This document shows positions 9,771 to 50,996 of a stretch of 59,653 bases of DNA, in pieces. Made by a program: the position numbers and the translations under genes. Position 1 is the stretch's first letter; the number at the start of each line of letters is the position of its first letter. The notes below the pieces were generated by a model. That model saw only the letters and a list, made by a program, of their open reading frames with translations. It was not told the DNA's origin and searched no databases. Origin of the DNA: Nemertoderma westbladi (taxonomy: Eukaryota > Animalia > Xenacoelomorpha). Where the stretch lies: the NCBI GenBank assembly GCA_032718475.1, contig JAUCBJ010000260.1, positions 1-59,653 of the forward strand, in the 5' to 3' direction.

Positions 9771-9848
9771 CTGTTTAGAGTATTTACGTATATTAGAAAC
9801 TGTGATTTTTGTATATTTATAGACTCAAATCCCATTTTCTGGGAGCGG

Positions 9849-19039: not shown

Positions 19040-19275
19040 CTGTGGATATATATACACAATATTAATTCACTTAACTCAATCATTTTGATTTCCAATGACA
19101 GGTTCCTTTTGGTGAGCCAATTTTTCTCAACCCCCTTATAGACCATTTACACTAGAAAAAAATCACACCCAGCCAATTGATTCCTACCATTACCCCTTCA
19201 ATTACATATAGCCAAACAATTATTTTTTTCACCCCACGAAACGAACAACAGGGCATAGATGTGCTAATACTGTAC

Positions 19276-20151: not shown

Positions 20152-20970
20152 GTTAAAGTGAATTATGATCTTTGATATTTAACACTTAGAAATTAAGTAA
20201 ACAATGGAAAATTATTTAAAATTGAAATGTATTTAAATTAAAACAGAATGTTAAAAATTATTTGAAATTTACCTACATTTCTACAGAAAACAATATGTTA
20301 CTAATGACTTCACAACCATTCCTAAAATCCTTGTGACGGGATCGGAGATCCCGACCGGGTTAGAAATGTACGCGTCACCATTCTGCTGGAGATCGTGCTA
20401 CTAGCTTTGGCCGAGGCCGTTTGGGAAAACAGTGAAAGTTTCTGTTGTCTTTCGATGTTAATTAATATAGATGATAATAGCACGTCAGTAATGAAGGCAG
20501 AAAAATACAGATAAATTGTTACCGGTATGGCGGTGGCGGTCATTAACTATGACCGGTCTGCACTAACTAAACTGAATAACACAACTGACCGGTAAACCAG
20601 TAATGTGAGATAATATATGATTAATACATTGAATATTGGTTCACCTCCTACTCTACTTTAGCCCTCTACCCAATGGATGCTTTCCTGTTCCCTATCACGT
20701 GCTTCCCTCCCTACTAGTGGCTTTGGGGCTTGTATCGTCCCCCCCCCCCCCCCCCCCCCCCAATGTTGGTTATGATACGAGATTAATATTGGTAATCTCG
20801 TATCCCCAACATATTGCTAAAATGCCACATAAATTTTCTGGTGGGTAATGAAGTGGAATTGAATCCGCTTACAATCCTCCTTATCTGGAACTTTTAAGTT
20901 TCATCTGCTTTGTCTATGAATTTCAAACATGGAAACTGACCCCAAGAAAGGATAAGTTAGATGTTAAGTT

Positions 20971-23900
20971 ATGAATGAAACTCCACCACTACTAGGCCGG
21001 TCACGGTTGGTCGCGCACCCGGCCGGTCATGGTATAGTAGATGTGGCTCCTACTCATCCACCGGCTCCACACCTACGACCATGGCGTCCCCATGTTACTA
21101 TTATCGGTAAAGGGGCTGCTGTCGCTGGCGGGCTACGTGGCGTAACGCGCTCCAAACTGGTGTTCGTTTCTCGCATGGATCCATTGGTAACCTCATCTCA
21201 ACTTTTGGAGTTTGTTACTACAACATTCTCACTCGCAGGCCCTGGTATTACTTGTGAACGGATTGCTACTCGCTACGACTCGTATAACTCGTTTGTAATA
21301 AAGTGCACGGAGGCTGGTGCTGCCATTCTGTTTAAGCCTTATAATGCAGCCCTCTGGCCGGAAGGCATTGCGCACTACTGGGCGGGTCCTCGTGACCCGC
21401 GCCCCCCTCCAGCGAGTCTCCCGCTGATGAACCCGACTCGAGTGGTGGAGTTGTCTAACAGTTCATCTCCTTCGCATTCCCATCCGGGTTCGCCATCTCA
21501 TCCTTCGCATTCCCATCCTGGTTCGCCATCTCATCGTTCGAATTCACATCACCATACTCCGTTACAGCCAATCTCCACTATAATCTCAGATGAGCCTGAA
21601 ATAACAGCTACTGATACATCCGCAGAGGCTTCCAGGGGGATTCTGAGAGATAATTTGTTCTACACCCTGACTAGCCTACAGAACTAATTACTAATGTTTT
21701 ATACACTTCTTTTATACAGCATTTCATGTAAATAATATGGTATCTATATCTTCATACAATGCAAACTCGGTTTGTACTCCTTCTAGTCGTTATGTGGTGG
21801 GGAAACTCCTCAAACAAACTGACATCCTACTCCTACAGGAACATATGCTCCCCTAAGCAGGATTTGGCGTTCCTACAGACCCTCAGCCCCGACTTCCTAG
21901 CTTACGGCACCTCTCCGGTTGATCTTCGTGATCAACTTGTTTCTGGCCGTCCGTATGGTGGTCTGGGTTTCCTGTGGCGCGAGGACAAATTAAAGGACAT
22001 GCTGCGTATCATCAATACTAACGATCCGCGGATGTTATCTGCTCGCCTCTCTCTATCTCCTACGTTTTCTTTGCTAATTGTCAATGTATATCTGCCCTAC
22101 GAATGTCCCGACAATGTTGATCTCTACTTGGAGTATCTTGGTAAGATTGAATCCTTGGTGGCTACTGAGGGCACTAATAACGTAATGTTGCTTGGTGACT
22201 TCAATGCTGACCCGAATAAGATTTTCTACAAATATCTTACGGAAATGTGTCAAGATTCTGGTATGTCTATTCTCGATACAGATACCTTGCCAGATTCTAC
22301 ATTTACATTTGTCAGTCCATCGTTTAACACCACCTCTTGGCTGACCACTGTGTAACTATGCATGATTTTAGAAATAATATTTTTGATATTAAGGTGGACT
22401 ATGACCTTACGGTATCTGACCACATTCCATTGACAATAATTCTAGAACCTATTGATAACACTAATATGAATGACCAACCACTGCCACCGGGTGTGGATAA
22501 AATTAATTGTGCTAATAATACTAAGGTGAAATGGAATAATTTAACACCGTTTCAAAAATCCAATTACTCTCATAAATGTGATTCTCTATTATCTAATATT
22601 ATTATTCCATGGTCTGCCATTAAATGCTCTGATACTAATTGTTTGTTACACAACAATGACATTGAACATTTTTATACAGACATTGTTGACTCTTTAAAGG
22701 GTGCTGAAATCAATTCTCAGGGTAATAATTCTAACCACAATACTAATTATTCTCATATTCCTGGTTGGAATAGTGTTGTTGGTGAAAAACATTCGATTTC
22801 TAGGAATTTATTTTTACTCTGGCGTCAGCTTGGTAGCACTAGTGGTACCTCGTTGCACCAACAACTATTGCGTTCTAAAGCGCAGTTTCAGCAAGCTATG
22901 CGAAGCTGTAAACGCGCGGAGGAACAGCTACGCTCAGACAGTCTCGCCAAGTTATTGGCTGGTGGTGACAGTAATAAATTTTGGAAAGATGTTAAAAACA
23001 AAATTAAATATAATACTAACTCTCCTTTGACTGTTGACAGCGCAAATGGTGCACCTTCTATTTGTGCTCAATGGGCTGATAACTACAAAAAATCGTTTAA
23101 TTTTAACCCAACTCGTGTAATTTCAGATGATGTTAGGAATGCTACGTGCAATATATCATTTAGTTTAGATATGCTTGTATCTCCTAAAGAAATAAGTAGT
23201 GCAATTGGTGAACTTTCGTGCAATAAAGCGGCTGGCCCTGACCAGGTCTCTGCTGAAAATATTATTTATGCGCCGTCTCGGCTTCCAATTTTATTAAGCT
23301 TATTATTTTCTTGTATGTTTACTCACGGTTTTATGCCTATGGTTTTATTACAATCTTTTATATTACCAGTCTTGAAAGATAAGAACGGCTTTCTCACTGA
23401 TAGTGGCAATTATCGACCTATCGCGCTTTCTACTATAATCGGTAAACCTTTTGAAATTAGTCAAGTCAGTTAGTAAAAGAAATTAGTCTTAAACAACGCA
23501 CTGAGCCCTGGATGACCTCGGGTATTCTTAGTAATATCAGAGAAAGAGATAAAACTATTTGTATAAATTTAGGAAATACCGTGTTTTAGCTGATTATAAT
23601 AATTACTGCAAATATAGAAACCTTGTCCAACGGGAAATAAAAAAAGCTAAATCTGAATATTTGTACAACAAAATAAGTGAGAATAAAGATAATCCTAAAA
23701 GTCAATGGTCTACCCTAAAATCTTTAGGTTATTTTTAAGTTATTTTTAGTTTTTTTAAAGTTATTTTTAAAACCCGTGTCTGAGGATTTCGTTTTTCAAA
23801 ATCTACTTAGCCATCAGCCTCAAAAAGTACCGGTCTAGACCTAATACCTGCCCGTTTTCTTAAGGATGGTGCTGAAGTACTTAAAGTGCCTATTACTTTT

Positions 23901-26655
23901 ATTATTAATTACTCTATGGTAGATAATGTAGTACCAGACGAACTGAAATTAGCTAAGGTTGTTCCTCTGTATAAAAAGAATAGTAAAGTAGAACCCTGTA
24001 ATTACAGACCTGTTAGTATCTTAAGTATTGTATCTAAAATTCTAGAACGTTCTGTTTTTCTACAGCTGGAAGCACATCTTAGTAGGCTAAATCTGATGTA
24101 TGAACTTCAGTCCGGCTTTCGTAAATCATATTCTACAGACACCTGCCTTATTAACTTAACTGATACAATTAGATGTAATAACGCAAAGGGTTTATATACT
24201 GGTATGGTAATGTTGGACCTACAAAAGGCTTTCGATACTGTAGATCACGAAATTCTGCTTGGTAAGTTAGGCCTGATGGGTGTAGGTTAAATAGACTGGT
24301 TCAAGTCCTACCTGTCAGACAGAGGTCAAACTGTAGTCATTAGCAAATCGCAGTCTACTGTACAAGAGATCACCTGTGGTGTACCACAAGGTAGTATATT
24401 AGGTCCTCTGCTTTTTGTATGCTATGTAAATGATATGATAAGTAGTATAGATCCCGATTTTAAACTCATTTTATATGCCGACGACAGTGCTCTTATTTTC
24501 TCTCATAAAGATCCTATCCATATTTCCCAAAATTTAAGTGCAGTTCTAGAATCCTGTAATGAGTGGTTGGTTGATAATAAGCTATCCATTCACTACGGTA
24601 AGACTGAAAGTACTTTGTTTGGTTCCAAAAGAAAGTTAAAGAAGGTAACTAAGTTTGAAGTCACTAGTAATGGACATAAGATTGAAAATAAAAAGGAAGT
24701 TAAATATTTAGGCGCCACATTGGATAACTGCTTATCAGGAGAAAGTACAGTGAAAAATATTTTCTCGAAAGTTAACAGTAGGCTTAGGTTTCTATACAGA
24801 AATAAAAATAGTTTAAACACCGACTCCCGCAAGTTACTTTGCTCTTCTTTAATACAGTGTCACATGGACTATGCATGCTCTTCTTGGTATGAAGGCTTAA
24901 GCAAACAGCTTAAATGTAAATTACAAGTAGCTCAGAATAAAGTAGTACGATTTATTAAAGGCTACAAACCTAGGCACCACCTAACTCCAGATGACTTTTC
25001 TGAATCTGGACTACTTAACTTAGATAGTAGAGTTAAGCAGCTACGCCTTAACCATGTGCATAAAGTGTATAATGGTAAATGTCCCAATTACCTAAAACAA
25101 AAATTCAACAGAGTACGCGATACACACTCTTACAGTACCAGAGCTAGTGCTTCAAACTTCTACCTCCCAAATTGTAAATCCTTTGAATCTGATACTTTCT
25201 TTTTTAACGGCATTAAAAATTGGAACGCTCTGCCTAATGAAATTAAAAACCTAAATAATCAACATTCTTTTAAATCTGCAGTTAAATCTCACCTCGGTGT
25301 GCAATGTAAAAATAGGTACAATAGTCCTACAGTAAGTTATTAGTTTATTAATTATTTACTATTTATACTGTAATTACGTTTTATAATAAATTGTTCTGTA
25401 CATTACATCTTTATCGTTGAGTCGGACATTGTCACGCTCTCGGTAAAGTTGTACATGTATATAGTGTAATTACGTTTTATATTGGTTTTAGGTTAGCGTA
25501 GTGTAATATTGTATTTGTAACCAAGTAACATAAAGGACCCCCTTGGAAATAAGCTGCAAAGCTTTACGGGTAATCCTATATGTTATGTTGGATGTATATA
25601 TTTGCTTCTTGGATGCGTCCAAAGCCTTTGATACCGTTTCTCATTCCACATTGTTTGCTAAACTGTTACACAGAGGGATTCCTCTATATAGTCTACGTAT
25701 TATATATTTTTTGTACGATAATCAGTCTTCTCGTTTGGGATGGGTATCTCTCGGGAAGTTTTACTGCGACTAACGGTGTAAAACCAGGAAGTATTCTCAG
25801 CGCCTATTTGTTCAATGTGTATACTAATGATCTTAGCATTGAATTAACTGTAACTGGTATAGGGTCTAGGCTTGGGCACTCTTGTGTCAATCATTTTTTA
25901 TATGCGGACGATTTATGCATTATTTCTACTTCCCCTATAGCCTTGCAACATCTTATTTGTAGTCGTTATGCTGATTATAATTCTCTAAAGTTTAATATTA
26001 AAAAATCGAAGTGCTATTGTATTTACATAGTAGGCTACGTAAGTTTTCTTCAGATTTAGATATACATCTTAATGGCGCAATTCTAGAACGCGTTGACAAA
26101 TATAAATACCTGGGCCATTTTATATGCAGTGATTTCCGTGATGATATTGATATTCGTAACTAAACTAGAGGTCATTATGCCCGTGCTAATTTATTTATTA
26201 GGAAATTTAGCTCATACAGTCGGCCTGTTAAGATTCAATTATTTTCTAGTTATTGTTCCAATGTTTACTGTAACTCACTTTGGGCTGATAAATACCTAAC
26301 CAAATCAACACTGGAACCGTCTACGTGTAGCTTACAATACTAGTGTTAAGAAACTTTTTGGATATAAATTTGATGAGAACTATAGTGCTTCTTGTTCATA
26401 TTCAACGCTTCTCTCTTAGCTAGTTTATTTTCTCGTGTATTTAGTTCAGATACTATTTTGATGTGTATTCGCAACATTTGTCTTGATAATTCTGTGCTTC
26501 ATTCTAGCTCTATTGGAAACCGACTCTAGTGTTTTGTAGTAACTGTATGTATCACTGTACGTAGGAGGACTTCATTTGCGCTATTATTGTAATTAATATT
26601 GTCAATTGTTATAGAACCTGTATTGGATCTGGAATAAAACATGTAAAAAAAAAAA
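20971..26655 (+). mobile_element. Degenerate LINE (RTE-X-like): ORF1-like region, APE endonuclease, RT, A-tail; may start near 20322
   Basis: GRPYGGLGFLW, GDFNAD and SDHIPL endonuclease motifs; NYRPIAL; FLDASKAFD, NGVKPGSILS and YADD. Several frameshifts; AATAAA then an A-run at 26633-26655. Confidence 0.85.
23456..25585 (+). mobile_element. 5'-truncated CR1-group LINE (L2/Crack/Daphne-like) nested in the RTE-X-like LINE
   Basis: NYRPVSIL, QSGFRK, LDLQKAFDTVDH, GVPQGSILGPLLF and YADD; stop at 24288-90; 3' UTR ending GGACCCCCTTGGAAATAAG... The host RT stops at KPFE and resumes at VYICFLD. Confidence 0.85.
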
Positions 26656-27489: not shown

Positions 27490-29625
27490 GTCCGATTCTC
27501 CAACTACTACTAGGTCGGGCGAACTCGGACAGTGGAAATGAGATCTTTCCCGGCTTCCCGATTCTCCAACCACTACTAGGTTGAGCGAACTCGGACAGTG
27601 GAAATGAGATGGTTATATATTGAAAAATATCGAGACATGAAAAATATCGAGAGTAAAAATAACGCGAGTAAAAACATCGAGTGTTGAAAAATAACGATAA
27701 TATTGAGAGTTCAAAAAATATCGAGAGTAAAAATATCGAGGGTAAAAATATCGAGAGTAAAAATATCGAGTGTTGAAAAATATCGAGAGTAAAAATATCG
27801 AGTGTTACAAAATATCGAGAGTAAAAATATCGAGTGTTGAAAAATATCGAGAGTAAAAATATCGAGTGTTGAAAAATATCGAGAGTAAAAATATCGAGTG
27901 TTGAAAAATATGGAGTGTTGAAAAATATCGAGAGTAAAAATATCGAGTGTTGAAAAATATAGAGTGTTGAAAAATATCGATAGTAACAATTTTTTTAAAT
28001 AATGGTTGAATGATAATTTTTTTTTACTAAAAATGTTCTATAACAAAAATATTTATCAACATTTGGTAGCTTATACGTGTTCTAATATAACATTTAACAA
28101 TATTTATAATATTTATCAAAATTGATAGCTAGCACTTCTTTTATAATATTTATTTAAAAAATAGCAAAAACTAGTTAGTATAATAAATCTGGTAAATGGG
28201 TACCCAAGGTGTATTACATAATGCCATTGACTTGCACTTGCACTGTTTTAACACATGCACTGCTATATTGTTCCATAATTCTAAATAAAATGCTCAAGCA
28301 AAATGCAATATTTTTACTCTCGATATTTTTCAACACTCGATATTTTTCAACACTCGATATTTTTACTCTCGATATTTTTCAACACTCGATATTTTCAACA
28401 CTCGTTATTTTTACTCTCGATATTTTTACTCTCGATATTTTTACTCTCGATATTTTTCAACACTCGATATTTTTAGTCTCGATATTTTTACTCTCGATAT
28501 TTTTCAACACTCGATATTTTTCAACACTCTATATTTATCAACACTCGATATTTTTACTCTCGATATTTTTCAACACTCGATATTTTTACTCTCGATATTT
28601 TTCAACACTCGATATTTTTACTCTCGATATTTTTCAACACTCGTTATTTTTACTCTCGATATTTTTCAACACTCGATATTTTTACTCTCGATATTTTTAC
28701 TCTCGATATTTTTCAACACTCGATATTTTTAGTCTCGATATTTATACTCTCGATATTTTTCAACACTCGATATTTTTCAACACTCGATATTTTTCAACAC
28801 TCGCTATTTTTACTCTCGATATTTTTCAACACTCGATATTTTTACTCTCGATATTTTTCAACACTCGATATTTTTCAACACTCGATATTTTTACTCTCGA
28901 TATTTTCCAATTTTTCAACACTCGATATTTTTACTCTCGATATTTTTCAACACTCGATATTTTTACTCTCGATATTTTTCAACACTCGATATTTTTACTC
29001 TCGATATTTTTCAACACTCGATATTTTTCAACACTCGTTATTTTCGATATTTTTCAACACTCGTTATTTTTACTCTCGATATTTTTTAATCACGTTAATT
29101 TTCAACACTCGTTATATTTACTCTCGATATTTTTACTCTCGTTATTTTTACTCTCGATATTTTTCAAGTCTCGATATTTTTCACCATTACCAATGAGATC
29201 CTTCCCGGCGTCCCGATTCTCCAACTACTACTAGGTCGAGCGAACTCGGACAATGGAAATGAGATCCTTCCAGGCTTCCCGATTCTCCATCTACTACTAG
29301 GTCGAGCGAACTCGGACAGTGGAAATGAGAGCCTTTCAGACTTCCCGATTCTCCATAGTTGACCTAATTTCGTTTCTCTCAAGTCCAGTATCGCTTTTAT
29401 TTTAAGTTGGTCCATGTTAGGGCATAAACAGTCGTCCACGACTACGCTTTCCATGAGTTGGTTGCCAGAAAAGTAGATCTGGTATGACCTCGTCTTTACT
29501 TCTCCAGCAGTGCCCACTGAATCTTAATCTACATTCACGGAGGGTGGTTGATACAGGTGGTATTGTACCATAAAGCTCGGCGTTTGTCATGTGTTGTATA
29601 GTATAGGTTAGTATATTTTTGAGAC
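27490..29625 (-). mobile_element. 3' fragment of an RTE-clade LINE with a tandemly reiterated 66-nt terminus
   Basis: TNAELYG...RLRFSGHCWR...W.P.HGKRSRGR is a typical RTE C-terminus. Repeats encode MENREAWKDLISIVRVRST* followed by (TAG)n. Confidence 0.8.
27611..29191. mobile_element. Non-autonomous TIR element with inverted satellite arms (Merlin-like or foldback)
   Basis: 8-bp duplication AATGAGAT (27603-10, 29192-99); termini GGTTA.../...TTACC. Arms are built from 15-nt TCGATATTTTTACTC and 17-nt TCGATATTTTTCAACAC units in opposite orientations. Confidence 0.75.
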
Positions 29626-33240: not shown

Positions 33241-33568
33241 AACTTGTGCAGTTTACTATGTAAATTTACTTTGGATATTCGTTAATAATTATTAGATTAT
33301 TAGTGTAGATTACCGGTAAAATTTATATTTTAATATTAAACATTTTATTTTAAATTTTATTTTTATTTTGCAATATAACAAATATTTTTTTATGAGCAGA
33401 AAGTGAAATGTTTATATGTGAAGTGTGACGTAGTTATTTAAAAGTTGAATATTGAATGTTGAATGCGCATTTGTGAGCCGGGGATTAGTGAACGCATACA
33501 TATCAAACACAACTGTAAATCATTAAAACATCATGATTTACATATCACCTTCACTTAATAACACCAAC

Positions 33569-34755
33569 TGTAAAAGCTTTTGTGGGATAACTGATACGTT
33601 TGCCTTTGCTGGCCAGTTCCCCCCCGGTCGCTAGAATACTCTCAAAGGGATTTATAACTAAAATAGTGCAAGCTACCAGCTTATTGGCTGATGTGCTGTG
33701 TGGAGATATCTGGGCTCAGTTTAATCGGCCAACCAGTGTAGGGAGGTTGCCTAAGCCTTGCTGTCCGTGTCGGCCAATAGAATTTGCGTGGGCGTTGATT
33801 TCGACCTATCCCAGCGCTACTGAACTGAATTTCCTATCTCTATGCTCATCCTCTGTGTTGAACGGGGCTTCGTGGAATAAGGGTAGTTGGTATCCTCGTA
33901 TAGTTATTCCAGTCATATGATTCTTCATATGATTCTGTTGTTATGTTCCCATTTTTCGCCATAACACCGGCTTTTTGGGAAGAACTCTAGTAAACTGCTT
34001 AAATTATCGAAAGTATAAACTGTTACCTTAACTAACTCACTTAATTTAACTGCATTAATCATATTGTTTGTACTGTTATTTTACTGTCAGTTATTAATTG
34101 TATCTATTTGTTGATGGAAATATTGCTCTTTGGAGAATACGGATAAATCACCTTAAATTCCCAATTTTCTTGATACACTACAGGTTAGAGAGACGGGCTA
34201 TATATAACAATTGCGATTTATATTAATGTGGTGTGTATTGAATCTAATGTTATTTAGTAGACCCTACATGAGTCAATTACTGCTCTCTTTATGTGTGATC
34301 AAATATACTGACGGTCGGCAGAATAGTGTGTATGATTGTGATTGGTAACAAAGTATTTCCTAAAGAATACGCTTTATACTTTAATCATAAGCGGTATCGT
34401 TGCGTTTTAGTATAAGTCTTAGTTCTGTTTAAATAGATAGAGCGCCACGTCCTAAAGGAACTGTTAATATTTCCCGAAAGCCAATAATATCTGTCAGAAA
34501 TTAATTATTAACGATCTATCGAATAATACAGTAAGTTTACGCTGCAACCTTACACTGCAATAATAAAATTTAAGCATCCGAATTCAGCCTCCCAGGTGTA
34601 GATCCATCGGGTGAATGATCGCGCATGGGCTGACTTCGGCTAATGTTTTGCGTATTAGCATAAAATATTGTCGTATGCTAAAGGTGTTTTAATTAACTAA
34701 AAGACATATAAATTTTGGCAGGTTAAACTGCTAAAGGTCTTCAAAAGCGCGAACA
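33569..34755 (+). repeat. 5' LTR
   Basis: TGTAAAAGC...GCGCGAACA; by eye it differs from the 3' LTR at about four positions. Confidence 0.97.
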
Positions 34756-34768
34756 GTAACAGTTTATA
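34756..34768 (+). promoter_or_regulatory. Putative self-priming primer-binding site
   Basis: GTAACAGTTTATA abuts the LTR, lacks the TGG of tRNA-primed sites, and is the exact reverse complement of LTR 34014-34026 (TATAAACTGTTAC). Confidence 0.65.
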
Positions 34769-35059
34769 ATCTTATTGCAGTAGGCAATAAGGTTGCAAAA
34801 TACCGTAGTGACTAGTAAAACTGAACCGGTACTTCTGTAGGTCAGTAGGCCTAACTGTCATCACCGGTACCGGTACTGCTGTACAAGTACATTTAGTATT
34901 ATTCGATTTTGATTATTGTATACCGGTAGGCTGTTTAAGAGATTAGGGACTGTACACCCCTTGTTTCTTTTGGAGCTTACTTATTTCTGTCGGTTTTATT
35001 TCCTAGTAAGTTAATATTGAGCTGAAGACGTGTAAGTCTGCTCAGATTGTTCAAATAAT

Positions 35060-35570
35060 TGTAGGCTGAACTGCTGTCTGACTGTGTTGAGTTTGGAGAG
35101 ATTACGGCGTGTGTAGAGTTTGTCTGATAAAGTGCCGTTAGTAAGTTGGGGCAGCCATATGCGGTAAGGTCAATCCCCTCTTAAAGAATAAGTCGTACTA
35201 CCGTGTTAGAACGCATACTAACTAACAGTTTCAGAATCTGCATATACTGTAGTTTATTTAGGCTTGATTGTAGTCTGCCAGTGTTTTAGCCTGTGTTTGT
35301 TTGTGTGGTCTGTTCAGGTACCGTAATAGTTATTACTCAGATATTTTGTAGGCTAGATTGTTGTCTAGCTATTCTTAGGCCTGAAGGGATTGCTGCGTGT
35401 GTAGAGTTGGTCTGATAAAGTGCCGTTAGTAAGTTGGGGCAGCCATATGCGGTAAGGTCAATCCCCTCTTAAAGAATAAGTCGTACTACCATGCTAGAAC
35501 GCATACTAACTAACAGTTTCAGAATCTGCACATACTGTAGTTTGTTTAGGCTTGATAGTAGTCTGCCAGC
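35060..35570 (+). repeat. ~288-bp tandem duplication in the 2.1-kb 5' leader
   Basis: GTGTAGAGTT...AAAGAATAAGTCGTACTACC...GTCTGCCAG occurs twice at a 288-bp period. Confidence 0.85.
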
Positions 35571-36910
35571 GTTTAGTTTGTATTTTGTTTGAGTATTCTG
35601 TACGGGTAGCGTAATATTTATTATTCAGAGTTTATGCGATTATTCGCAACATTCATGTCCCCAAGTTTATTCCTACAGTAATTGTGCTTGTTATACATAC
35701 CGTTATAGTTAAATTAACTCCGGTACTACACGGGCTGCTTGGCGTAGGACAAGACTGGTGACTTTGTGCTCTAGTCACTCCAGCAGATGCCGTGGTTCTT
35801 TTAACTGTTCAAGTATATTTAACTACTGATTATTTGTTATACCGGTACTTGTACCTAATTTAGGGTTTAGTGTACAGTGCTTTCCGAAGTAATTAGTGTA
35901 GGCAGTATATTTGTGTTGTAAAGTGGTTGATAGGCACATTCGTTAGCTCTATTAGCTTCTGGGTAGGAACAATCCGTGATACATAACGTAGTACCTATAG
36001 CGATACGGTTATAGGTCGTCAGGCGGTGGTATTTTCCTATCTGGACAGTACAATATATTTACTACTACTTATTATTTCAAATACCGTAGTACCCTGTCCG
36101 TTGTAATAACCAGAATTCTAACCCTTTGTTAGGCTGGTTTGTAGACTTCCTGTAAAATTACCCTAAAAAATTTCGTACGTAATATTTTGTTGTGTTTAAT
36201 TAGAGAATTAATCTCACCAGTATAGTAAGTAATTTGTAGTATTAAGTAACTTAGGTAAATTAGAATTATCAGTTTTAGTGTAAAATAAATAGCACTTCAC
36301 TGAGAGCGCACAGCTTCTGTGTAGTGACTCCCCCAGAAATAATAACATTTATTTCAAATATTGACAAAAAACCCATTTAGATGGGTATATAAATATTATA
36401 AATCAAATCAAACGATTTATAAATAGTAGGCCTGCCATACAACAACTAGGTCTCACTATCAGTTGGACTACTGCTTAAATAACGGTAATAAAGTAAGTTA
36501 AAGTAACTAAGTAACCCTAAAATATTCAGGAATTCAATTATTCTAAAAATAATTGACATACCGGTACTTACCATAGGCTTATTATATTTATTTCTATAAA
36601 TTTGAGCTGAAATCATAACGGTACTCTGTAATTAATTCTAGTTCATAATTATACTTATATATACTATAAGTGTAAGCTGTATACCGGTATTCAAGATAGG
36701 CCTATTATATATTTATATATATCTGTGCTAAATTTATATACCGGTACTCTGTGACAAACCTAGTTTACAATACTTATATATATTATAAGTGCATACCGGT
36801 ATTCTAATATACTGCAATAAATTACCGGTACTAGGCCAGTGGTCATACTGAATTACTAGACTTGCTTTAACTGTAACTATAGCAGTAAGCCTTCAACTGT
36901 ATAGCTAAAC

Positions 36911-39900
36911 ATGTCTGACACTCAGCAAAACCTGTCAGACAGTCTGATCGATACAACTATCTGTGATTCAGATAGGAGTGTGGAGCGAATAAGAAAGGAG
37001 TTCGGCTCACCTCCTACTGTAAAAAAGGTCATCCCTCCAGTAGTATCAGACCCTAGGCTAGTCCACCATAGGTCCATCATAGGCACTCGGGCACAGGTAA
37101 AACGGGACCAAGAGGCAGTTGTCCTATCGCAGCAACATCTTGGTCAAGAACCTACTTCCCAGCGACCCGATAGCTCCAGCAGTTCGGATACTGTAGAGCT
37201 GACTCCCGAACATGGAGTGCAGATGGCTGATACAGTCTACTCAGACCCCCTTCTTACTCTTCCTGCTGCAGTGCTAACTACTATATTCATTGCGGTGGAG
37301 GAACATCAAGCCGACTGGGCGAAGAATAAGCGAGCGACCCAAGATAATTACGCGGGATACGCCAGGGAAGAATTGATATCTATTGTTGAATCACAATGGA
37401 ACTTTCCCGGACTCGGACTTCCGTTGGATCTGTCCGAGGCTACTTGGGAAGATATACACAGGATGGGAGTGGCTAAAGATACAATGGATCCAGCTGTTTG
37501 GAAGAGGTCAGCAGCAGGATATGTGCAGGGATTCTTCGGATCCTTGGATCGATTGGAAGAACAACTGTTTCGACAACCTCACGGACCTCAAGAGCAGGAA
37601 GAGCTGCTATATCAAATACGCGAAAGAACCCTACGCATACGACTAATCCTCTCAGCCTTTGAGGAAACTTCCAAAAGAAGACAGGACACGTCGCTGCAGG
37701 TTGCTGTCAAAACTTGGCTACATCGGGTAGATCTCAAAGTACAGGAAACGGCCCAGTGGAAATCCCAGCTGGCTGAGAGATCAACCTATGAAGAACCAAC
37801 TGATGTCACCCTTTCTCAAGCGGAAAGCGAAGAGGCCGCCGAGAAACCGCGAACTAGAGACGCTATCGACATTTATTTGTCCGACTATCAGCGATTCCTA
37901 GGAGACGAAGAGTTGAGGAGACGGCTGTCTGGACTTTCCCCTAATAGTGAAGGAACCAAGCTTGTGTTGGACTCAATCGATGCCGAAATGTTAGCTGCAA
38001 ACCAAGCTGAATGTGATGAAAAACTCCGCCTCACTAGAGTCCGAGAAGAACAAATAAAGAAAAGAAGGATAGAGGAACAAAAGGCGGCGGCTATGGCAGA
38101 AGCAGAAGTAGAAAGAAAGGCAGCGGCGGCAGATGCAGAAGCAGAAAGAAAGACAGCGGCGGCAGATGCAGAAGCAGAAAGAAAAGCAGCGGCGGCAGAT
38201 GCAGAAGCAGAAAGAAAGGCAGCGGCGGCAGATGCAGAAGCAGAAAGAAAAGCAGCAAAGGCAGTGGCAGAAGCAGAAAGGAGAGCATCTGAGCAGACTA
38301 CCCAACTGGAGTTGGAAAATCTGCAAGAGACACAAGACAGTATAAATAAACAGTTTACTGCTAATCAAATGCAGATGATGAGAAAATCTACTCCCAAGCG
38401 CCAGGGATACACATCCTCGGAGGAAGGCGAGACCACCGATCCTGAAGGCGGAGGAAATAGATCTCATCTAAGTAGGCGTAGAAAAACATCTTACCGTCGC
38501 AAATTGCCTAATTTGCCCCCAGCTGTTAAAAGACAGCTAACTAGCACAGACTTAGCGAGTGCAGAACCCATAGAACAATTTATCCAGGTCAAAAGACTCC
38601 CTACTATAGTCGATGAACCTGAAATAATTAGGCCTGTTGTTCCCAAAGTCACTTCTGTGCTAGAGACCCCTGCACTTCCAGAGCTTAACTCTAAATTCCC
38701 TTTACATAGTACTACACTGCCTGTACCCGGTGGAACAGTCCAAGAGAATACTCCTGTCCAGATAGCAGAGAGAGAAATCAATAATTTGTCTCCCGTCGTC
38801 CCGCGTCAGCCCGCTACTATGTTGGCGACTCCCGCTTCGGCGGTTGAGTGGGTGGAAGAGGGACGGCGGGGGATGAATCTCCTGCTGGGACAGATGCAGG
38901 AGACTGTCCACCAACTTAAGGGAACAGTGAGGGAAGGTAGAGCAGAGTTGCGGGAGGTGCAGCGGAGTGTCGCGCTAGAACGCGACAAATTAGTCAATAT
39001 CCAAAAGGGCATACCAATACCCCCTGTAACATTGTGTCAACCTGTTAGGTCTGAAGTATTACATGCGCAAGGTGTGGAGCCTACACGCATCTATACTGCT
39101 AGTGAAGTTGAAACTCCTATAGCAAACCCTATTAAGGGTGATTATAGACCTGTTATTAATGATATTCCCTATAGACCTGATAATGATCCGAGAAATTTAT
39201 ATACCGATAATTCGATATTAAATAACACGATGGCCCAAGAAAGCTTTACGCGTCAGATGGCTAGAACAGAAGCCCGCCAAGCGGTCAAAGTGGGAGAGAT
39301 CGTCAAATTCAATGGAGATGAGATGAAATGGTTACCTTTCAACGAATATTACAAAGATAGCATACAGAATTCTGTACTATCTAACGGAGAGAAACTTAGA
39401 TTCCTCATCAAATGTTTGGAAGGACCTCCCAAGTTAATGGCGTTAAAGTTTATTGGACATCCAGAAGGATTAAGACAAGTTTGGGATACATTAAACATCA
39501 GGTATGGTAACAAGGATAACATAGCTAAGTATTTGTACGCAAAATTAGTAGCCCCCCGACACTTCCTTAGTAGTGGGATTATAGAGTTTTCCGATGAAAT
39601 TCAAGAGATCTGTAGACAACTGGACTGGTTAGGTAAGTCGCACGAATACCAGAGTTCCATGGTTATTGGAGCCGTAGTCTCTACTTTACCAAAGGGTGGA
39701 GTATGTACACGCTGGGACAAGAAAGTGTTGTACATGAATGAACAACAACGACGAAGTCCTACCATGGCTGATCTCATGTCTTTCTTAGATGGTGAAGTCA
39801 AACTACAACTCATCAAGCAGTCCAGAGAGAAAACATCGGAAAATAAGGTAAGTGAGAAACCCACTTCTAGGAGAAGAGTAACACCGGTGTGTTACACTGA

Positions 39901-41122
39901 CGACGGCGAAAGCCAAGCTTCCCAAGAAGAGGACAGCGGGAAAGATACAGACCGATCGTATTATGTTGACAAAACCTCCAAGGACGTAAGTAAATACAAA
40001 GCTCGAACCAATAATAGGAGAGAACAAGTTACTAAGACCCCTCCTCAGTCTCCTAGCAGAATGCGCGGAAGAAAGCCCGAAGAAAGAACGAGAGTGCATC
40101 AGACTACCCAAGGTAAAGTAAGTAACATAAAACCTAACTGTGCGCTGTGCGACGGGACCCACCGCTTGAGTGCGTGTGCGGAATTTCTAAAGAAATCCCT
40201 TGTAGACAGACGTACAGTTGTGTGGGACAAGCGGTTATGCTATAATTGCCTCAGACCAGGACACCAACGGCGAACCTGTTACTCCGACATAAAGTGTGAA
40301 AAGTGTGGTGCGAAACATCACATCTTGTTACATAGTGAGTTCGAACGAGACAAGCCGAGTCAGGTAAGTGAGTCCGAACTTCATGTCCAATTCAGTGATG
40401 TAAACGACACTGATCAGGAGTCTGAGATGGAAGGATTCTATACTGACGAATTCTCCGACGCCAATGAATCCTGTTATCTAATAAACACCACGGTGTATCG
40501 AGCACTTACTTACGAAAAGGACATCAACGAGGAGTTTCCCCCTACTACTTTTACCAAACAATCATCTTGGAAAGCTCCAACTTCCAACGTAGGAATCAGA
40601 GAATTTCCTGTAGTTCAGGTAAGAGTTCACGGTATTAACAAAAGCTACATAGTGAACGCCCTACTTGACTCAGGCAGCACAGGAACATTCATCGATCAAG
40701 AGCTAGCCGAAGATATCTTTGCTGGACAACCCAAGTTCCGGACTAAATTGAATATGTCAGGAATTATGCAGGTTTGGAAATCTACCCTGACGGCAGATTA
40801 CTATGTAGGTGTGTTGTCCACCCCCCAGGATAAGTTAGGAACACAAGGTGTAAGGTCAGTAAAAATGGTGGCTATAAAGAACTTCGCTACTACCCAAGCA
40901 GACCTTTATAATTGGGACGAGGATGAGAGCATCCAACATCTTAAGATACCTCGATTCCAGACAGATTATCCTGGAGTGCAAATACTCATCGGCCAAAACG
41001 CACACGAAGCGCTTGAGACATTGGAGAAACGGCCTGCTCAACCACAGCCACTGCAAACTTATGCGGTAAGAACTAGAGTAGGTTGGTACTTTACTGGCCC
41101 TTCCCGTAGAACTCTAGAATAG
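36911..41122 (+). CDS. gag: BEL/Pao Gag-protease
   Basis: Long N-terminal coiled-coil extension with AEAERKAAAAD repeats, capsid-like region, three CCHC/CCHH knuckles, LLDSGS protease. Ends at a TAG in frame with pol. Confidence 0.95.
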   Translation: MSDTQQNLSDSLIDTTICDSDRSVERIRKEFGSPPTVKKVIPPVVSDPRLVHHRSIIGTRAQVKRDQEAVVLSQQHLGQEPTSQRPDSSSSSDTVELTPEHGVQMADTVYSDPLLTLPAAVLTTIFIAVEEHQADWAKNKRATQDNYAGYAREELISIVESQWNFPGLGLPLDLSEATWEDIHRMGVAKDTMDPAVWKRSAAGYVQGFFGSLDRLEEQLFRQPHGPQEQEELLYQIRERTLRIRLILSAFEETSKRRQDTSLQVAVKTWLHRVDLKVQETAQWKSQLAERSTYEEPTDVTLSQAESEEAAEKPRTRDAIDIYLSDYQRFLGDEELRRRLSGLSPNSEGTKLVLDSIDAEMLAANQAECDEKLRLTRVREEQIKKRRIEEQKAAAMAEAEVERKAAAADAEAERKTAAADAEAERKAAAADAEAERKAAAADAEAERKAAKAVAEAERRASEQTTQLELENLQETQDSINKQFTANQMQMMRKSTPKRQGYTSSEEGETTDPEGGGNRSHLSRRRKTSYRRKLPNLPPAVKRQLTSTDLASAEPIEQFIQVKRLPTIVDEPEIIRPVVPKVTSVLETPALPELNSKFPLHSTTLPVPGGTVQENTPVQIAEREINNLSPVVPRQPATMLATPASAVEWVEEGRRGMNLLLGQMQETVHQLKGTVREGRAELREVQRSVALERDKLVNIQKGIPIPPVTLCQPVRSEVLHAQGVEPTRIYTASEVETPIANPIKGDYRPVINDIPYRPDNDPRNLYTDNSILNNTMAQESFTRQMARTEARQAVKVGEIVKFNGDEMKWLPFNEYYKDSIQNSVLSNGEKLRFLIKCLEGPPKLMALKFIGHPEGLRQVWDTLNIRYGNKDNIAKYLYAKLVAPRHFLSSGIIEFSDEIQEICRQLDWLGKSHEYQSSMVIGAVVSTLPKGGVCTRWDKKVLYMNEQQRRSPTMADLMSFLDGEVKLQLIKQSREKTSENKVSEKPTSRRRVTPVCYTDDGESQASQEEDSGKDTDRSYYVDKTSKDVSKYKARTNNRREQVTKTPPQSPSRMRGRKPEERTRVHQTTQGKVSNIKPNCALCDGTHRLSACAEFLKKSLVDRRTVVWDKRLCYNCLRPGHQRRTCYSDIKCEKCGAKHHILLHSEFERDKPSQVSESELHVQFSDVNDTDQESEMEGFYTDEFSDANESCYLINTTVYRALTYEKDINEEFPPTTFTKQSSWKAPTSNVGIREFPVVQVRVHGINKSYIVNALLDSGSTGTFIDQELAEDIFAGQPKFRTKLNMSGIMQVWKSTLTADYYVGVLSTPQDKLGTQGVRSVKMVAIKNFATTQADLYNWDEDESIQHLKIPRFQTDYPGVQILIGQNAHEALETLEKRPAQPQPLQTYAVRTRVGWYFTGPSRRTLE

Positions 41123-41125
41123 AGA

Positions 41126-44100
41126 ATGCCCCACGAACAAATATATCAGGTAAGTGATTGGGAAGAGGAAAGCAGTGAGGTGGACGAACTAACTGAGGGA
41201 ACACCATACTCCTCGGATAATGACGACATCTACCAACTCTTCGAAGAAGAGAACACAATTGACCTACTTACCGAAAACCAAACTTGGAAAAACCAAACGA
41301 ACCTATGTCAACTGATTCGCCCAACGGAATCCACTATTTATAATGACGAACTTAATGACGAGGTAGAGCGCTACAACGCTAGAACTCGGGACGAACTCGC
41401 CGTACGATTCTTTACCCAAGAATTGGTAGAACCCAATTCATACGACAAAGCCCTGTCGATAGAAGAAGAAAGAGCCAAGCAAATCCAGGAAACAACCACA
41501 CGTTTTTTAAAAGATCAAGGTAGATATGAAATCGGACTACCCTTCCGAAAACGTGAACCCAGATTTATAAATAACAGACCCTTGGCTGAGAAAAGAATCA
41601 ATCAATTACATCGACGTCTTACGGCAAACGCTTCAGCTAAGGAAATGTACCAAACTCAGTTGAAGAAATTTATCACAAAGGGATATGCGGAGCGAGTACC
41701 GGAAGGAACTCCAATAACTGAAAGGACTTATTATCTAACACATCATTATGTTCCCAAACCCGGTAAACCCCATGAAGTACGGGTTGTATTTGATGGCTCC
41801 GCCCTATATATGGGCCAATCCCTTAATTCAGAGTTGTTACCAGGACCCAACTTGCTCCAATCTTTGTTGGGGATACTGTTGAGATTAAGACAATATTCCA
41901 TCGCGTTCGCCTCCGATATAGAAGGAATATTCCTACAAGTCAAGGCGTTGGATCGTGATAGAGACAGCCTAAGATTCCTGTGGTGGCCTGAAGGAGATCT
42001 CAACCAGAAACCGGTAGAGTACTGGATGACCATACAGGCCTTTGGGATTATATCAAGCCCTTCAAACGCCTGCTCAGTGGTCCGTACCACTGCGGATGAC
42101 AACCGGGATGCCTTCTCTAAAGAGGTGATAGATAACATCAAACGAGACATATACATGGACGACAATTTAAAGTCCCTTCCATCAGTAAAGGAAGCCATTG
42201 ATGTCGCGAAAGGAACGGTTGAGTGTTTGAAAAGAGGTGGATTTCGATTGACGAAGTTCACCAGCAACTCCCGTGAGTTTCTGGAAGCAATATCTATAGA
42301 AGACCGGGGATCAAAAGATCTCGACTTAATATATGACGATCTTCCGGAAACCAAGACGCTTGGCTTGAAGTGGGACACAGAAAGAGATATCCTGTTTTTT
42401 CAATTAAAACAGCGAGATAATCCAGTTCGGACCAAACGGATTTGTTTAAGTATTCTGAGCACTTATTTCGATCCCTTGGGATTTATTAGCCCAGTTATAT
42501 TGATTGCTCGGAGTTTAGTCCAACAAATGTGGCTGGAAAACCACTCGTGGGACGATCCACTCAAGGGAGAACTATTAAAGAAATGGATGAAATGGGAGGA
42601 TTCGCTACCTGCCATCGAGAACTTTATAATTTCCCGTTCATATTTTGGTCATGTTCTCCCTACGTATTCCTATCAACTCCATGTATTTGGAGATGCCAGC
42701 GATATGGGGATCGGTATAGTAACATATCTGCGAGTCGAAACTCCGGATGGAATCAAAGTTGCCTTGGTTACCTCTAAGGCATTGATTAACAACAAGCTTA
42801 AGGTTCCTCGGGCGGAGTTAAAAGCAGCATTATACGCTACCGCTATCGGACGGAATGTAACAGAACAGATCGATTATCCACTGGAGAAAACTGTTTATTG
42901 GACCGACGCTTTACTTGTATTGGAATATATAACGAATGAAGTCTGTCAGTTCAGCGTCTTTGTTACTAACAGAGTGGCCATTATTCTTAGTCGCACAACG
43001 ATAGATCAATGGAGACATTGCCCTGGTACGATTAACCCAGCTGACATCGCCTCCAGAGGAGCAACTCCACAGGAACTGATAGATACCCCTGACTGGTTGG
43101 GTGGACCCGACTTCTTGAGCAAGGAAGAGGATGAATGGCCTCCTCACCTTACTACGGCTGAGATTAGACAAGCCAAGGGAGCGGAGAAAGTCAAACCCAA
43201 AATTCGGACAAGTAAATCGAAGTTATTTAAACCGACAATCGACCTATCTGTATTACATACTGCCGAGAACGATACTTCGGATCCACAATCCCTCGCCACA
43301 AACAAATCTGTTGTGGAAATTAGAGACAGAGATTGGAAATCTGAGATACCAGACGTCTCGCAAGGAATCTCACCCCTGCTGCAGAGAGCACTGCATCATT
43401 ACAGTTCCTGGAATCGTCTCTGTAAAGCTATCACATACTTAAAGAGATGTTTTCACCATCATTACTCCAGGAAGAAGACCACTAGTGATCCTGCTCCGGT
43501 AACATCTGCGCAAGTTCATGTTATTAAAGATCTACCTAAGTACAAGATATCAGACCGGTTTCTAAAAGAGAAGATCAGCTACCAGGAGCATGAAGAAACT
43601 AATAAGCAGATACTGAGACTCTTGCAATGCTATGAGGATTCCGATAGGTACTTTCTGTTGTTGAGAAATCCGCAGATGCGCTTAAGGGATCGCTTCTCTA
43701 GCACAATGATAGATGGGTTAATACGTGTTGGAGGAAGGCTTACAAACGCCCCATTATCCTTTGATACTAAATTCCCTATACTCATTAGTAATCTTGAAGT
43801 ACAAATCAAGATGATTGTAGATGTTCACAGTAAATTGTATCATGCTGGTAGAGAACGAGTTCTTAGCGAGATTCGAACCCGCTATTATTTTCATAAACCA
43901 CGTAGAGCTCTGAATCAAGTTCTTAGGAACTGCATACCTTGTAGGAAAGTATTCAGTAGGCCTTTAACACAGCGAGAGGCAGAATTACCTAGGGAACGAG
44001 TAAGCTTTTATGAACCACCCTTTACTAATACTGGTGTGGATTTATTTGGCCCTATTGAAGTATATCGTGCTAGAACTATAATCAAGAGATGGTGTGTAAT

Positions 44101-45037
44101 CTTTGTCTGCATGACTTGTAGAGCTATCCATCTCGATATGGTGAATGATCTATCTACTAACAGCTTCGTCTTATGTTTACGACGACAGATCGCTCGTTTC
44201 GGCACTAGCAATACGATGAGATCCGATAAGGGAACGAACTTCATTGGTGCTAACAACGAAATTCAGGCTTACGTAAAGGACTGGAATCAAAGACAGGTGG
44301 ATGACCAGCTACGGATAACGGCGTCTAGCTGGACCTTTAACGCCGCCGATGCCCCTTGGTGGGGAGGAAGTTGGGAGAGATTAATTCGAAGTGTCAAGAC
44401 CGCATTTCACTTTATAGTGCCGTGCCGCGCATATCTCACCGACGAACTTCTACGGACGTTAATGGAAGAAATCGCTGCCTATCTTAACGAGAGACCGCTT
44501 ATGCCAGTCTCATCGAGTATCGACTCCCTGGAAGCGCTAACACCCGCGCACTTCCTACTTAAGAAACCTGTAGCCATGCTCCCACAATCCGAGATTGCCG
44601 ATGGAGATGAATACTGTCGTCGAACTTGGCAGCTTATGCAGTTGCTATCCCGTCGTTTCGCTGACCATTTTGAGAAACATTATCTGCCCACGCTACAACT
44701 TCGAACTAAGTGGTTTGCGCAGCAGGAAAATGTCAGCGCCGGAGACATGGTCCTTATTGTAGATCCGGACCTCCCACGTAGACGGTGGCAGATCGGTCGT
44801 ATCATCGAGACGCATATCTCGGAGGATGGTCTAGTGCGCTCAGTAGAACTCGTCGTAATGCGGCGTAACTTCAAGAAACCCGGGATAATCTTTGAGACGC
44901 AACAACTCAATCGCCCAGTTGGTCGCTTATGTTTGCTGGAAAGAGACAGGGAACTCTCCGGAAACTATGGAAGACAAGACACTCTTCCCACGACCACCTC
45001 CCTAATACCTCAAACATTTAGGGGCTCTTCAACGTAG
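41126..45037 (+). CDS. pol: BEL/Pao Pol (RT, RNase H, integrase)
   Basis: RVVFDGS, SDIEGIFLQV, YMDD; VFGDAS, PRAEL, WTDA, NPAD; H..H..CIPC, GVDLFGP, SDKGTNF, WERLIRSVK. Confidence 0.97.
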   Translation: MPHEQIYQVSDWEEESSEVDELTEGTPYSSDNDDIYQLFEEENTIDLLTENQTWKNQTNLCQLIRPTESTIYNDELNDEVERYNARTRDELAVRFFTQELVEPNSYDKALSIEEERAKQIQETTTRFLKDQGRYEIGLPFRKREPRFINNRPLAEKRINQLHRRLTANASAKEMYQTQLKKFITKGYAERVPEGTPITERTYYLTHHYVPKPGKPHEVRVVFDGSALYMGQSLNSELLPGPNLLQSLLGILLRLRQYSIAFASDIEGIFLQVKALDRDRDSLRFLWWPEGDLNQKPVEYWMTIQAFGIISSPSNACSVVRTTADDNRDAFSKEVIDNIKRDIYMDDNLKSLPSVKEAIDVAKGTVECLKRGGFRLTKFTSNSREFLEAISIEDRGSKDLDLIYDDLPETKTLGLKWDTERDILFFQLKQRDNPVRTKRICLSILSTYFDPLGFISPVILIARSLVQQMWLENHSWDDPLKGELLKKWMKWEDSLPAIENFIISRSYFGHVLPTYSYQLHVFGDASDMGIGIVTYLRVETPDGIKVALVTSKALINNKLKVPRAELKAALYATAIGRNVTEQIDYPLEKTVYWTDALLVLEYITNEVCQFSVFVTNRVAIILSRTTIDQWRHCPGTINPADIASRGATPQELIDTPDWLGGPDFLSKEEDEWPPHLTTAEIRQAKGAEKVKPKIRTSKSKLFKPTIDLSVLHTAENDTSDPQSLATNKSVVEIRDRDWKSEIPDVSQGISPLLQRALHHYSSWNRLCKAITYLKRCFHHHYSRKKTTSDPAPVTSAQVHVIKDLPKYKISDRFLKEKISYQEHEETNKQILRLLQCYEDSDRYFLLLRNPQMRLRDRFSSTMIDGLIRVGGRLTNAPLSFDTKFPILISNLEVQIKMIVDVHSKLYHAGRERVLSEIRTRYYFHKPRRALNQVLRNCIPCRKVFSRPLTQREAELPRERVSFYEPPFTNTGVDLFGPIEVYRARTIIKRWCVIFVCMTCRAIHLDMVNDLSTNSFVLCLRRQIARFGTSNTMRSDKGTNFIGANNEIQAYVKDWNQRQVDDQLRITASSWTFNAADAPWWGGSWERLIRSVKTAFHFIVPCRAYLTDELLRTLMEEIAAYLNERPLMPVSSSIDSLEALTPAHFLLKKPVAMLPQSEIADGDEYCRRTWQLMQLLSRRFADHFEKHYLPTLQLRTKWFAQQENVSAGDMVLIVDPDLPRRRWQIGRIIETHISEDGLVRSVELVVMRRNFKKPGIIFETQQLNRPVGRLCLLERDRELSGNYGRQDTLPTTTSLIPQTFRGSST

Positions 45038-46664
45038 CACGTCTGGAGTGGGTGTATGTCTATGTTATTTTATCTGTTTTTATTACATTTTTATATGTAA
45101 ATGTTATTATGTACGTTATTATAATCGTTTTTATTTAATTTTATTTAGTAAAAGGTTATTTTTAGAATATTTAGTAAATTAGTGTAATATATTAGTGTTT
45201 ATTACGTATTTAATTACTTATAATATATTTATTGCGACGGCAAGAAATAATTATTTTTCTCTTTCCTTACTGTCCGTATTATATTATAAATGCGAGACTA
45301 TAGTAAGATGACATGTCAGTACTTCTTAAAGTACAATAAAGCCACTACTATATTTAAGTATTATTGCAATATTGGTAGGCAGAGTATTAGGAATGCAAAG
45401 TTCAGATCCTCGTGTCTCGGCTAAACCAAGCTCTGGGTAGACCTTGGAAACGACTTGCCTCTTCACACTGACATTGCTTCGTGCGATATTGCTCTTCTCC
45501 TTATAACAAATAATACATATAGTAGCGTGATGTCCCTCTAACAGTAGCGTAAATCGCAAATAAATCTGTTAAACTTTTGACCATCTGTAATTCTAGTCGA
45601 TTAAGATATCGTGGCACCCACCGATATACTTGAAAGACAAATTCTAGAATCAGTGGTTAACGTCCCCAGACAAGTTCTGGAATAAATCGGTGCCCATCCT
45701 AAATATTAATTTAATATTTATTAAAATCTGTAAAATTCAGATCCGTTAACAATTCTAGTCGATTAAGATATCGTAGCACTTACCGATACTCTTAAAAGAC
45801 AAATTTCATAGAATTAAGGATCCTATGTCCCCAGACCTGCTCTGGAATCAAATTGTGTCAATTTTAACATCAAATAATAAAATTCACGGGAATAAATTTA
45901 AATTCATATTCGAATGAATTTCATAAATTGTCATTTTGTGCAATTTACAACATTCCCAAAATTCCAGTAATTAATAGATCATGGGAGCGGAGATTCATAT
46001 TGAGTGTACTAGAGTGCGAGAATCTCCAATATATAGTCAATAGCCGATAAAATTTATAAAATCAGGCATAAAGAGAAGATTGACAATTAAAGAATTACTA
46101 TTAAATAACATCCCAGATCTGTATACATGAGAATTGCCCTAATTCTACCGCTAGTTTTCCATAATGTCACCATGGCAACACCCACGCTAGAATTAGAAGC
46201 AAGTTAAAGGAACAATAAAAGGCTTGCCCCATTGCATAGCCTAAGAGGATACATAGCGCACTATTAGTATCCAAGGATACATAGTAATAACGTGACATTC
46301 TGGAAGACACTGACTAACGGACAAATGGCATGCATGTGTGCAGTAAGTAATGATTGTATGGAATTTGTGCGTTTATAGGTGAATGTTACTACTAAAGTGT
46401 GTTTACAGTAGCTAATCGCAATTGTAAAGTAGCCCTAACTCTACCGAGATAACCTCAAGTGGATTCAAGCCTTTGGGACGGACAGTGGTGGGACTTGTGC
46501 CGGTTATCGTTGTCGTGCTGTTGCTACATGTTGGCGTAAACACTGCGACAACGGTACATCGGCGCTGAGAAACCCACTGTCCGGGGGCAAAGTCTAGTAG
46601 GCAGCGACGCCCGCTTGCCTAAAATATTAACTCATATTGATATTAATAAACTCAGATAGCAGAT

Positions 46665-50918: not shown

Positions 50919-50988
50919 CTGTTTAGAGTATTTTTATATTTTAGAAACTGTGATTTTGTATATTTTATAGACTTAAATCCCATTTTCT

Positions 50989-50996
50989 GGGAGCGG
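50989..50996 (+). promoter_or_regulatory. Short polypurine tract
   Basis: GGGAGCGG immediately before the 3' LTR; identical at 9841-9848. Confidence 0.6.

Follow-up and report, generated by a model that had tools for sequence, protein, structure and literature searches.

The BEL/Pao-type retrotransposon in the window analysed here (the whole stretch of 59,653 nucleotides of Nemertoderma westbladi DNA) carries, directly after its 5' long terminal repeat (LTR), a 13-nt site without TGG, GTAACAGTTTATA, which is the exact reverse complement of positions 34014-34026 of that LTR and of the second copy at 51442-51454 in the 3' LTR. Both this complementarity and its register, in which the last C of the 13-mer lies opposite the first base after the LTR, had been claimed in a sequence-only reading of the same DNA and were confirmed. 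The best explanation, which we consider moderately probable, is that the element primes its minus-strand DNA synthesis in the manner of Tf1, with a piece of its own RNA taken from the 5' LTR copy; that the primer is self-made, whichever LTR copy supplies it, is a view we hold with fair confidence. The proposal of self-priming in a BEL lineage gains partial support from a published in silico criterion, from limited covariation among copies and from self-complementary sites in distant BEL loci; where the RNA starts, where it is cut and how it primes are steps that we infer.

The element and its proteins

Self-comparison of the window delimited the element to 33569-52183, a length of 18,615 bp (Table 1). 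The features by which BEL/Pao elements are recognized were found: the LTR ends, a target duplication, a purine tract, the order protease, reverse transcriptase (RT), RNase H and integrase, and Gag and Pol proteins of the BEL type. PF05380 is carried by the top 120 protein homologues of the element; the top homologues, 31-41% identical, belong to marine invertebrates, fish and insects, and best matches reach 35-46% over partial or full length. YMDD and the acidic residues of RNase H and integrase could be seen by eye in the RT-RNase H-integrase frame, and a Pfam search of the element's proteins gave no match to a chromodomain. A quick integrase tree, with 40 rows and without an outgroup or named references, shows the element as a long unresolved branch, so the distant loci described below are not its close kin. 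No relatives were found in viral contigs, and pattern scans returned chance matches only, four in viral contigs and three in metagenomes, none longer than 22 bases.

Table 1. Coordinates of the features discussed, in window numbering
Feature	Position	Strand	Basis or remark
Target-site duplication CCAAC, 5 bp	33564-33568 (left), 52184-52188 (right)	+	
5' LTR, 1187 bp, TG...CA	33569-34755	+	4 differences from the 3' LTR, also 1187 bp, TG...CA
11-nt word common to both LTRs exactly	33997-34007 = sister 10330-10340	+	
Candidate self-primer, 13 nt	34014-34026	+	Exact complement of 34756-34768; predicted duplex -13.9 kcal/mol
CCAAT/TATA-like pair, possible downstream promoter	34161-34207	+	Kept in both LTRs
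Block identical in both LTRs	34439-34480	+	Third CTGTTA (34461) can pair 8-9 nt with the site
Primer-binding site without TGG	34756-34768	+	Complement of 34014-34026
Predicted 10-bp hairpin right after the site	34769-34793	+	Folding; changes in one contig
Leader (2.1 kb): unit of ~285 bp, two tandem copies	35059-35629	+	Self-comparison
Gag-protease frame, 1405 aa stop to stop	36905-41122	+	DUF1759; Cys/His knuckles and LLDSGS protease motif by eye
RT-RNase H-integrase frame, 1304 aa	41123-45037	+	Peptidase_A17, Integrase_H2C2, DUF5641 hits
Third frame, 1422 aa; zinc-knuckle-like motifs	46650-50918	+	Likely exonuclease-like domain at residues ~690-960
Purine-rich tract preceding the 3' LTR	50989-50996	+	
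3' LTR; second 13-mer copy at 51442-51454	50997-52183	+	
Sister element's 3' LTR; 13-mer counterpart at 10346-10358	9849-11118	+	Self-comparison, alignment

The element shares with the Belpaoviridae (Semotivirus) an LTR length within 0.2-1.2 kb, the purine tract, Gag followed by protease, RT, RNase H and integrase, and a third frame (PMC8742986). It differs from the 2021 ICTV profile of this family, which gives an 18-nt site complementary to the 3' end of tRNA-Arg or tRNA-Gly and a genome of 4.2-10 kb, and its third frame looks exonuclease-like, not envelope-like. The same profile describes the family as primed by host tRNA and its replication as poorly understood (PMC8742986). The element is filed as BEL/Pao-type on protein grounds, and the priming statement of the profile does not fit it.

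A single in-frame stop (41120-41122) lies between protease and RT. Programmed read-through at this stop is not favoured, since the frame of the sister copy is open at the same place. In-frame stops split the frames in four of the distant loci too (L019, L021, L024 and L025).

The indicated part of the third frame is likely a 3'-5' exonuclease-like domain, judging by eye and from language-model features, whose score of 0.92 to a PF01612 cluster is a lead only. For this part there was no Pfam match, no solved relative and no homologue among the shorter proteins searched, and a single-sequence structure model of the frame (pLDDT 30) was unusable. The third frame of the sister copy has lost its middle. 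A role of this protein in priming is speculation.

A primer-binding site that matches the element's own LTR

The first TGG downstream of the 5' LTR is at 34971, 215 bases past the LTR end. The excerpts of PMC6317226 count as a self-primer, in silico, a stretch of 10 nt or more that complements the 5' LTR and begins 0-5 bp after it; here 13 nt were found at offset 0. Even when G-U pairs are allowed, the element has no longer match, and the 13-mer word has no further occurrence within the window. The 4 differences between the two LTRs of 1187 bp mark a young copy, which would then have been primed recently without a CCA-tRNA site.

A chance match is improbable. Dinucleotide shuffles of the LTR reached 13 nt in 1 of 20,000 cases at offset 0 and in 4 of 20,000 when the best of offsets 0-4 was taken, so that the earlier rough estimate of 1e-4 was about right. 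When internal positions of the element were treated as pseudo-sites, 13 was reached at one of 16,204, namely the real site; outside the element and the sister LTR, 2 of 39,449 window positions reach 13. The hexamer CTGTTA, the core of the 13-mer, occurs three times in the LTR (34020, 34073 and 34461), and the true chance is thus somewhat above the shuffle estimate.

This repeated hexamer, which resembles a Myb site, raises the odds of a long match and thereby bears on the reading in which the pairing is no primer at all, being either a fold in the RNA or a DNA repeat motif extended by luck, while some other device, such as a hairpin, primes. The predicted hairpin after the site, with its double change in one contig, fits such a device, and the conserved hairpin of fungal GalEa elements offers a precedent (PMC5445492, excerpts). 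However, the duplex ends at exactly the first post-LTR base, a hairpin offers no free 3' end, and distant relatives hold a complement at the same position in unrelated letters. We give this reading little credence.

No tRNA or Rfam family was found inside the element, and thus no element-encoded tRNA; Cer7, a nematode BEL element, is said to have been proposed to encode its own tRNA-like primer. No tRNA was found in the rest of the window or in 15 loci either. A host RNA could nevertheless prime, be it an internal tRNA fragment as in copia/Bianca or a small RNA, with the LTR complement serving structural or regulatory pairing. The core of the complement presumably fits the Asn anticodon loop pattern, and position 1 of the site is either G or A, the kind of variation that a spacer base could show. 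Half-tRNA primers are described in the available parts of PMC6317226 and PMC5445492. On the other side, the arguable pairing is 6-8 for a tRNA fragment against 13 for the LTR, the element contains no tRNA or Rfam family, and a variant at site positions 10-11 follows the sister LTR, as described below. We judge a host primer to be rather improbable.

Variation among copies

The sister element (1-11118) is internally deleted and ~90% identical to the element in its coding part. The sequence-only reading had pointed to an island at 10330-10358 of the sister LTR as a conserved counterpart of the 13-mer region. The island is present as described and keeps 24 of 29 bases against 64-66% in its flanks. 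As evidence it is weaker than was implied and, taken alone, is not conspicuous: the same gappy alignment gives 25-26 of 29 for windows that start at 33953-33964, and the island has its longest exact word upstream of the 13-mer. With the 13-mer counterpart in the sister LTR, the site of the window forms 9 pairs.

Other copies were available as contigs from sequencing runs. The stretch is present in six of seven runs, and four were compared (X1, X3, X4 and X5), of which X4 carries a different species label; summed contig depth is no copy number, and contigs cannot reveal RNA starts. Between 33450 and 35050, 182 differences occur at 3% or more, and none of the 40 listed lies inside 34014-34026. 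The primer-binding site is nearly invariant: over the 95 bases of 34718-34812, just three substitutions reach 1% in any of the four runs. These are the sister-type LTR end at 34752 (31, 29, 52 and 31% of summed depth in X1, X3, X4 and X5), G to A at site position 1 (20, 12, 35 and 0%) and a rare change at 34767. One-base losses in the T run each come to about 1% in X1 and X3, and to 6% in X4 and X5.

The depths in X4 can be decomposed in only one way, with the sister-type end in records 18 and 21 and the A at position 1 in records 17, 18 and 21. At positions 1, 10 and 11 the site of record 21, loose end included, departs from the window's, in each case toward a Watson-Crick pair with the counterpart in the sister LTR, so that 11 consecutive pairs form, with a G-U at position 9 and positions 12-13 unpaired. 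These changes may represent one substitution and one length change per side rather than three events. In record 21 the hairpin downstream of the site is likewise preserved, by one double change and one change of G-U to G-C.

Covariation across copies, which the sequence-only reading had proposed to look for, is therefore present to a limited extent, at three positions of one contig with a depth of 7 in X4, whose link to the sister LTR is indirect and consists of one LTR-end base. The 13-mer against which its site was compared is that of the sister LTR, not the contig's own. This tag at the LTR end is only loosely tied to the site: it stands at 29-31% in X1, X3 and X5, against 20%, 12% and 0% for the A at position 1, and the one-base shift stands at about 1-2% in X1 and X3 and at 6% in X5. 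Record 18 of X4 mismatches both known LTR versions at site position 8, and an X4 contig changes from sister-type to window-type sequence at 33963, which suggests that LTR halves likely recombine. For the sister's site the sequence-only reading had predicted a T-to-C change at 34764, as expected if the site is recopied from the sister primer. None of the four runs lists this change at a level of 1% or above, and the matching variant retains a G-U there; this absence counts against priming from the 5' LTR copy.

In X1, depth drops from ~336,000 in the bin 33990-34043 to ~13,000 at 34028; most copies thus probably diverge immediately past the 3' end of the 13-mer, which speaks for priming from the 5' LTR copy. 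Within the LTR, summed contig depth in X1, X3 and X4 is highest over a block that is identical in both LTRs (34422-34475). Some copies tandemly repeat the LTR end and primer site (34750-34798) in the leader, with 35 other letters between; the joint is seen in X4, and matching loose ends in X1, X3 and X5.

RNA folding, promoter signals and the origin of the primer

In the mechanism that we favour, the transcript would start at or upstream of 34014, and the RNA would fold back so that 34014-34026 pairs with 34756-34768. The element's RNase H would then cut after 34026 and free the primer end, as in Tf1, and the freed RNA piece would prime minus-strand DNA synthesis. When the RNA was taken to start at 33997, 34008 or 34014, both the duplex and the hairpin next to it were predicted in six of six folds, with a pairing probability of 0.83-1.0 for the first 11 duplex pairs; all folds span 600-940 nt and are weak evidence. 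The hairpin was lost in four of four folds with 5' ends at 34100 or 34230. A candidate U5-leader stem (a 10-nt complement between 34555-34564 and 34772-34781) had a pairing probability of 0 in 12 of 12 folds of this length, and bases 34772-34781 were taken by the local hairpin in six of these 12.

Several observations stand against this mechanism. The loop between primer and site is ~730 nt, and a 5' end at 33960 gave neither duplex nor hairpin in two of two folds. Additionally, the clearest promoter-like pair, conserved in both LTRs, comes downstream of the 13-mer. The caveat of the sequence-only reading about a TATA-like string is thus real: CCAAT at 34161 and TATATA at 34199 both recur in the sister LTR (10500 and 10538). 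This pair opens the better-conserved half of the LTR (83%, against 64-66%), and the boundary 34183/34184 scores as a splice acceptor and as a donor, with a splice-site score in both LTRs. AT-rich TATA-like strings were also seen by eye near LTR position 85-95 in both LTRs, and such look-alikes do not decide the start site.

In Tf2, the usual start is downstream of the primer and yields RNA that cannot be copied, according to the parts of PMC5341516 available. Given this precedent, a downstream promoter is compatible with self-priming: the CCAAT/TATA pair may drive a shorter, primer-less RNA, as does the alternative start of Tf2. A start exactly at 34014 may not be needed either, by analogy with relatives in which the complement sits at a predicted exon-exon joint and not at the RNA end.

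If transcription instead began at the CCAAT/TATA pair, near 34230, the 13-mer would fall in U3 and a self-made primer would come from the 3' LTR copy (51442-51454), on a second packaged RNA or through a 3' end cut or trimmed to the duplex; the exonuclease-like third frame could do the trimming. The conserved pair downstream of the 13-mer is consistent with this route, as are the U- and GU-rich sequence directly after the 13-mer, noted by eye and of the kind found after poly(A) sites, and the similarity of the third frame to 3'-5' exonucleases. Yet the cut would remove R and part of U3 from that RNA, which makes a second template necessary, the two LTRs share no conserved poly(A) hexamer upstream, and the last acidic residue of the exonuclease motif seems absent by eye, with no homologue found. 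We regard a primer from the 3' LTR copy as unlikely, and the specific form of a U3 13-mer with the primer cut or trimmed to the duplex, possibly by the third protein, as quite unlikely. If such priming were true, BEL/Pao elements would, with the splice-built primers of relatives, have several tRNA-free routes that described retroelements are not known to use.

Self-complementary sites in distant BEL loci

A scan of prokaryote assemblies gave 18 BEL loci (L008-L025), which likely are host-animal contamination in prokaryote records; L015 is likely host DNA in a Wolbachia assembly. Thirteen entered a splice-joint test, and five without a usable LTR region were left out (L008, L014, L020, L022 and L023). 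A complement of 11-14 nt to the predicted LTR splice junction was found in eight of the 13, in a test whose regions were picked after the sequences had been read, whose acceptor threshold was loosened once and whose shuffles ignore the requirement that the site lie at the LTR end. The shuffles that did as well, per 300, were 3 for L009, 24 for L011, 1 for L013, 4 for L016, 6 for L017, 16 for L018, 0 for L019 and 1 for L021, and good donor and acceptor signals accompany the predicted joint in L009, L011, L013, L017, L018, L019 and L021.

L010 (6091-6425) has a 320-bp LTR and lacks TGG. Its 11-nt self-complement is contiguous and sits at offset 4 (3 of 2000 shuffles as good), with a TATA-like string ~30 bases ahead of the complement. 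TGG is present at offset 0 in L015 and after a CA in L024 and L025, and neither a self-complement nor a TGG site was seen in L012 in the joint and contiguous tests. The LTR ends are fixed by an LTR pair in L010, L015 and L018 only; in L018 (3' LTR 13613-14382, site from 350) the joint complement begins at offset 0. A nested LTR element in L018 gave no complement in the orientation tested. Like the window's site, eight of the nine self-complementary sites start with GT or AT. From these sequences we infer that a single mechanism could exist in two states, one with contiguous and one with splice-built primers, and that the primer can lie elsewhere than at the very start of the RNA.

In the window's own element, a splice-built primer was rejected: the best joint with plausible splice sites pairs over 8 nt, and 216 of 300 shuffles were as good. 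A 16-nt joint from an unconstrained GT..AG search was likewise rejected, as it relies on poor splice sites.

Relation to known self-priming elements

In the available parts of PMC6317226 and PMC4600332, Tf1/sushi and Tcn1 are described as self-priming and the copia lineage TAR is predicted to be so; the excerpts of PMC3601003 mention self-priming for chromoviruses only. The Ty3/gypsy chromoviruses concerned (Tf1, Tf2, Tj1, Tf1/sushi and Tcn1) resemble the present element in that they have no tRNA site and that the bases after the LTR complement their own LTR (PMC4600332, PMC5341516, PMC6317226, all in part); in the Tf1 group, RNase H cleaves the RNA duplex (PMC5341516, excerpts). The present element, in contrast, has BEL/Pao proteins without a chromodomain match; its putative primer begins 446 bp inside an LTR of 1187 bp and is separated from the site by ~730 nt, with a presumed start at the primer end; and no U5-leader stem is predicted, but a local hairpin follows the site. 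By analogy, the element likely works like Tf1 without being a member of the Tf1/sushi group.

The TAR lineage of plant Ty1/copia elements (Houba, Osr-1) has the same kind of LTR complement (PMC6317226, in part), and differs in superfamily and host kingdom. Fungal GalEa copia elements also have no tRNA site and carry a hairpin, the Conserved Hairpin Site, near the site position; the excerpts of PMC5445492 report no LTR complement to that site, whereas the present element has one of 13 nt. Juno and Vesta of bdelloid rotifers have a third frame with a DEDDy-type exonuclease, and the excerpts of PMC5408684 contain no BEL/Pao description of them and no link to priming; the domain in the present element is only a lead.

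A search of the freely accessible literature, with several sources available in part, found no report of self-priming in BEL/Pao, and the words primer and tRNA do not occur in the main text of three BEL surveys (PMC3118150, PMC6238403, PMC8556966). As far as these partial sources extend, the self-priming route was found described only for other retrotransposon groups and not for BEL/Pao. A young high-copy family without a tRNA site, together with nine of 13 distant loci whose sites are self-complementary, suggests that tRNA-free priming may be common in BEL/Pao. If self-priming is true, BEL/Pao would be the third self-priming superfamily, after Ty3/gypsy and Ty1/copia. Such elements would evade silencing by tRNA fragments that target the primer site, and finders that require a tRNA site would miss them or score them as defective. 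The choice of start site, or splicing, could also regulate them.

Other features of the window

On the minus strand, 17876-20178 encodes a sodium channel of the DEG/ENaC type in two long frames, of which one carries an LDL-receptor class A domain. RT-bearing fragments, likely of non-LTR retrotransposons, and a DDE transposase fragment were found at 11060-13186 (-), 21732-26059 (+) and 53644-54213 (+). Tandem arrays lie at 27620-29186 and 57052-58023, the first consisting of two blocks in opposite orientation.
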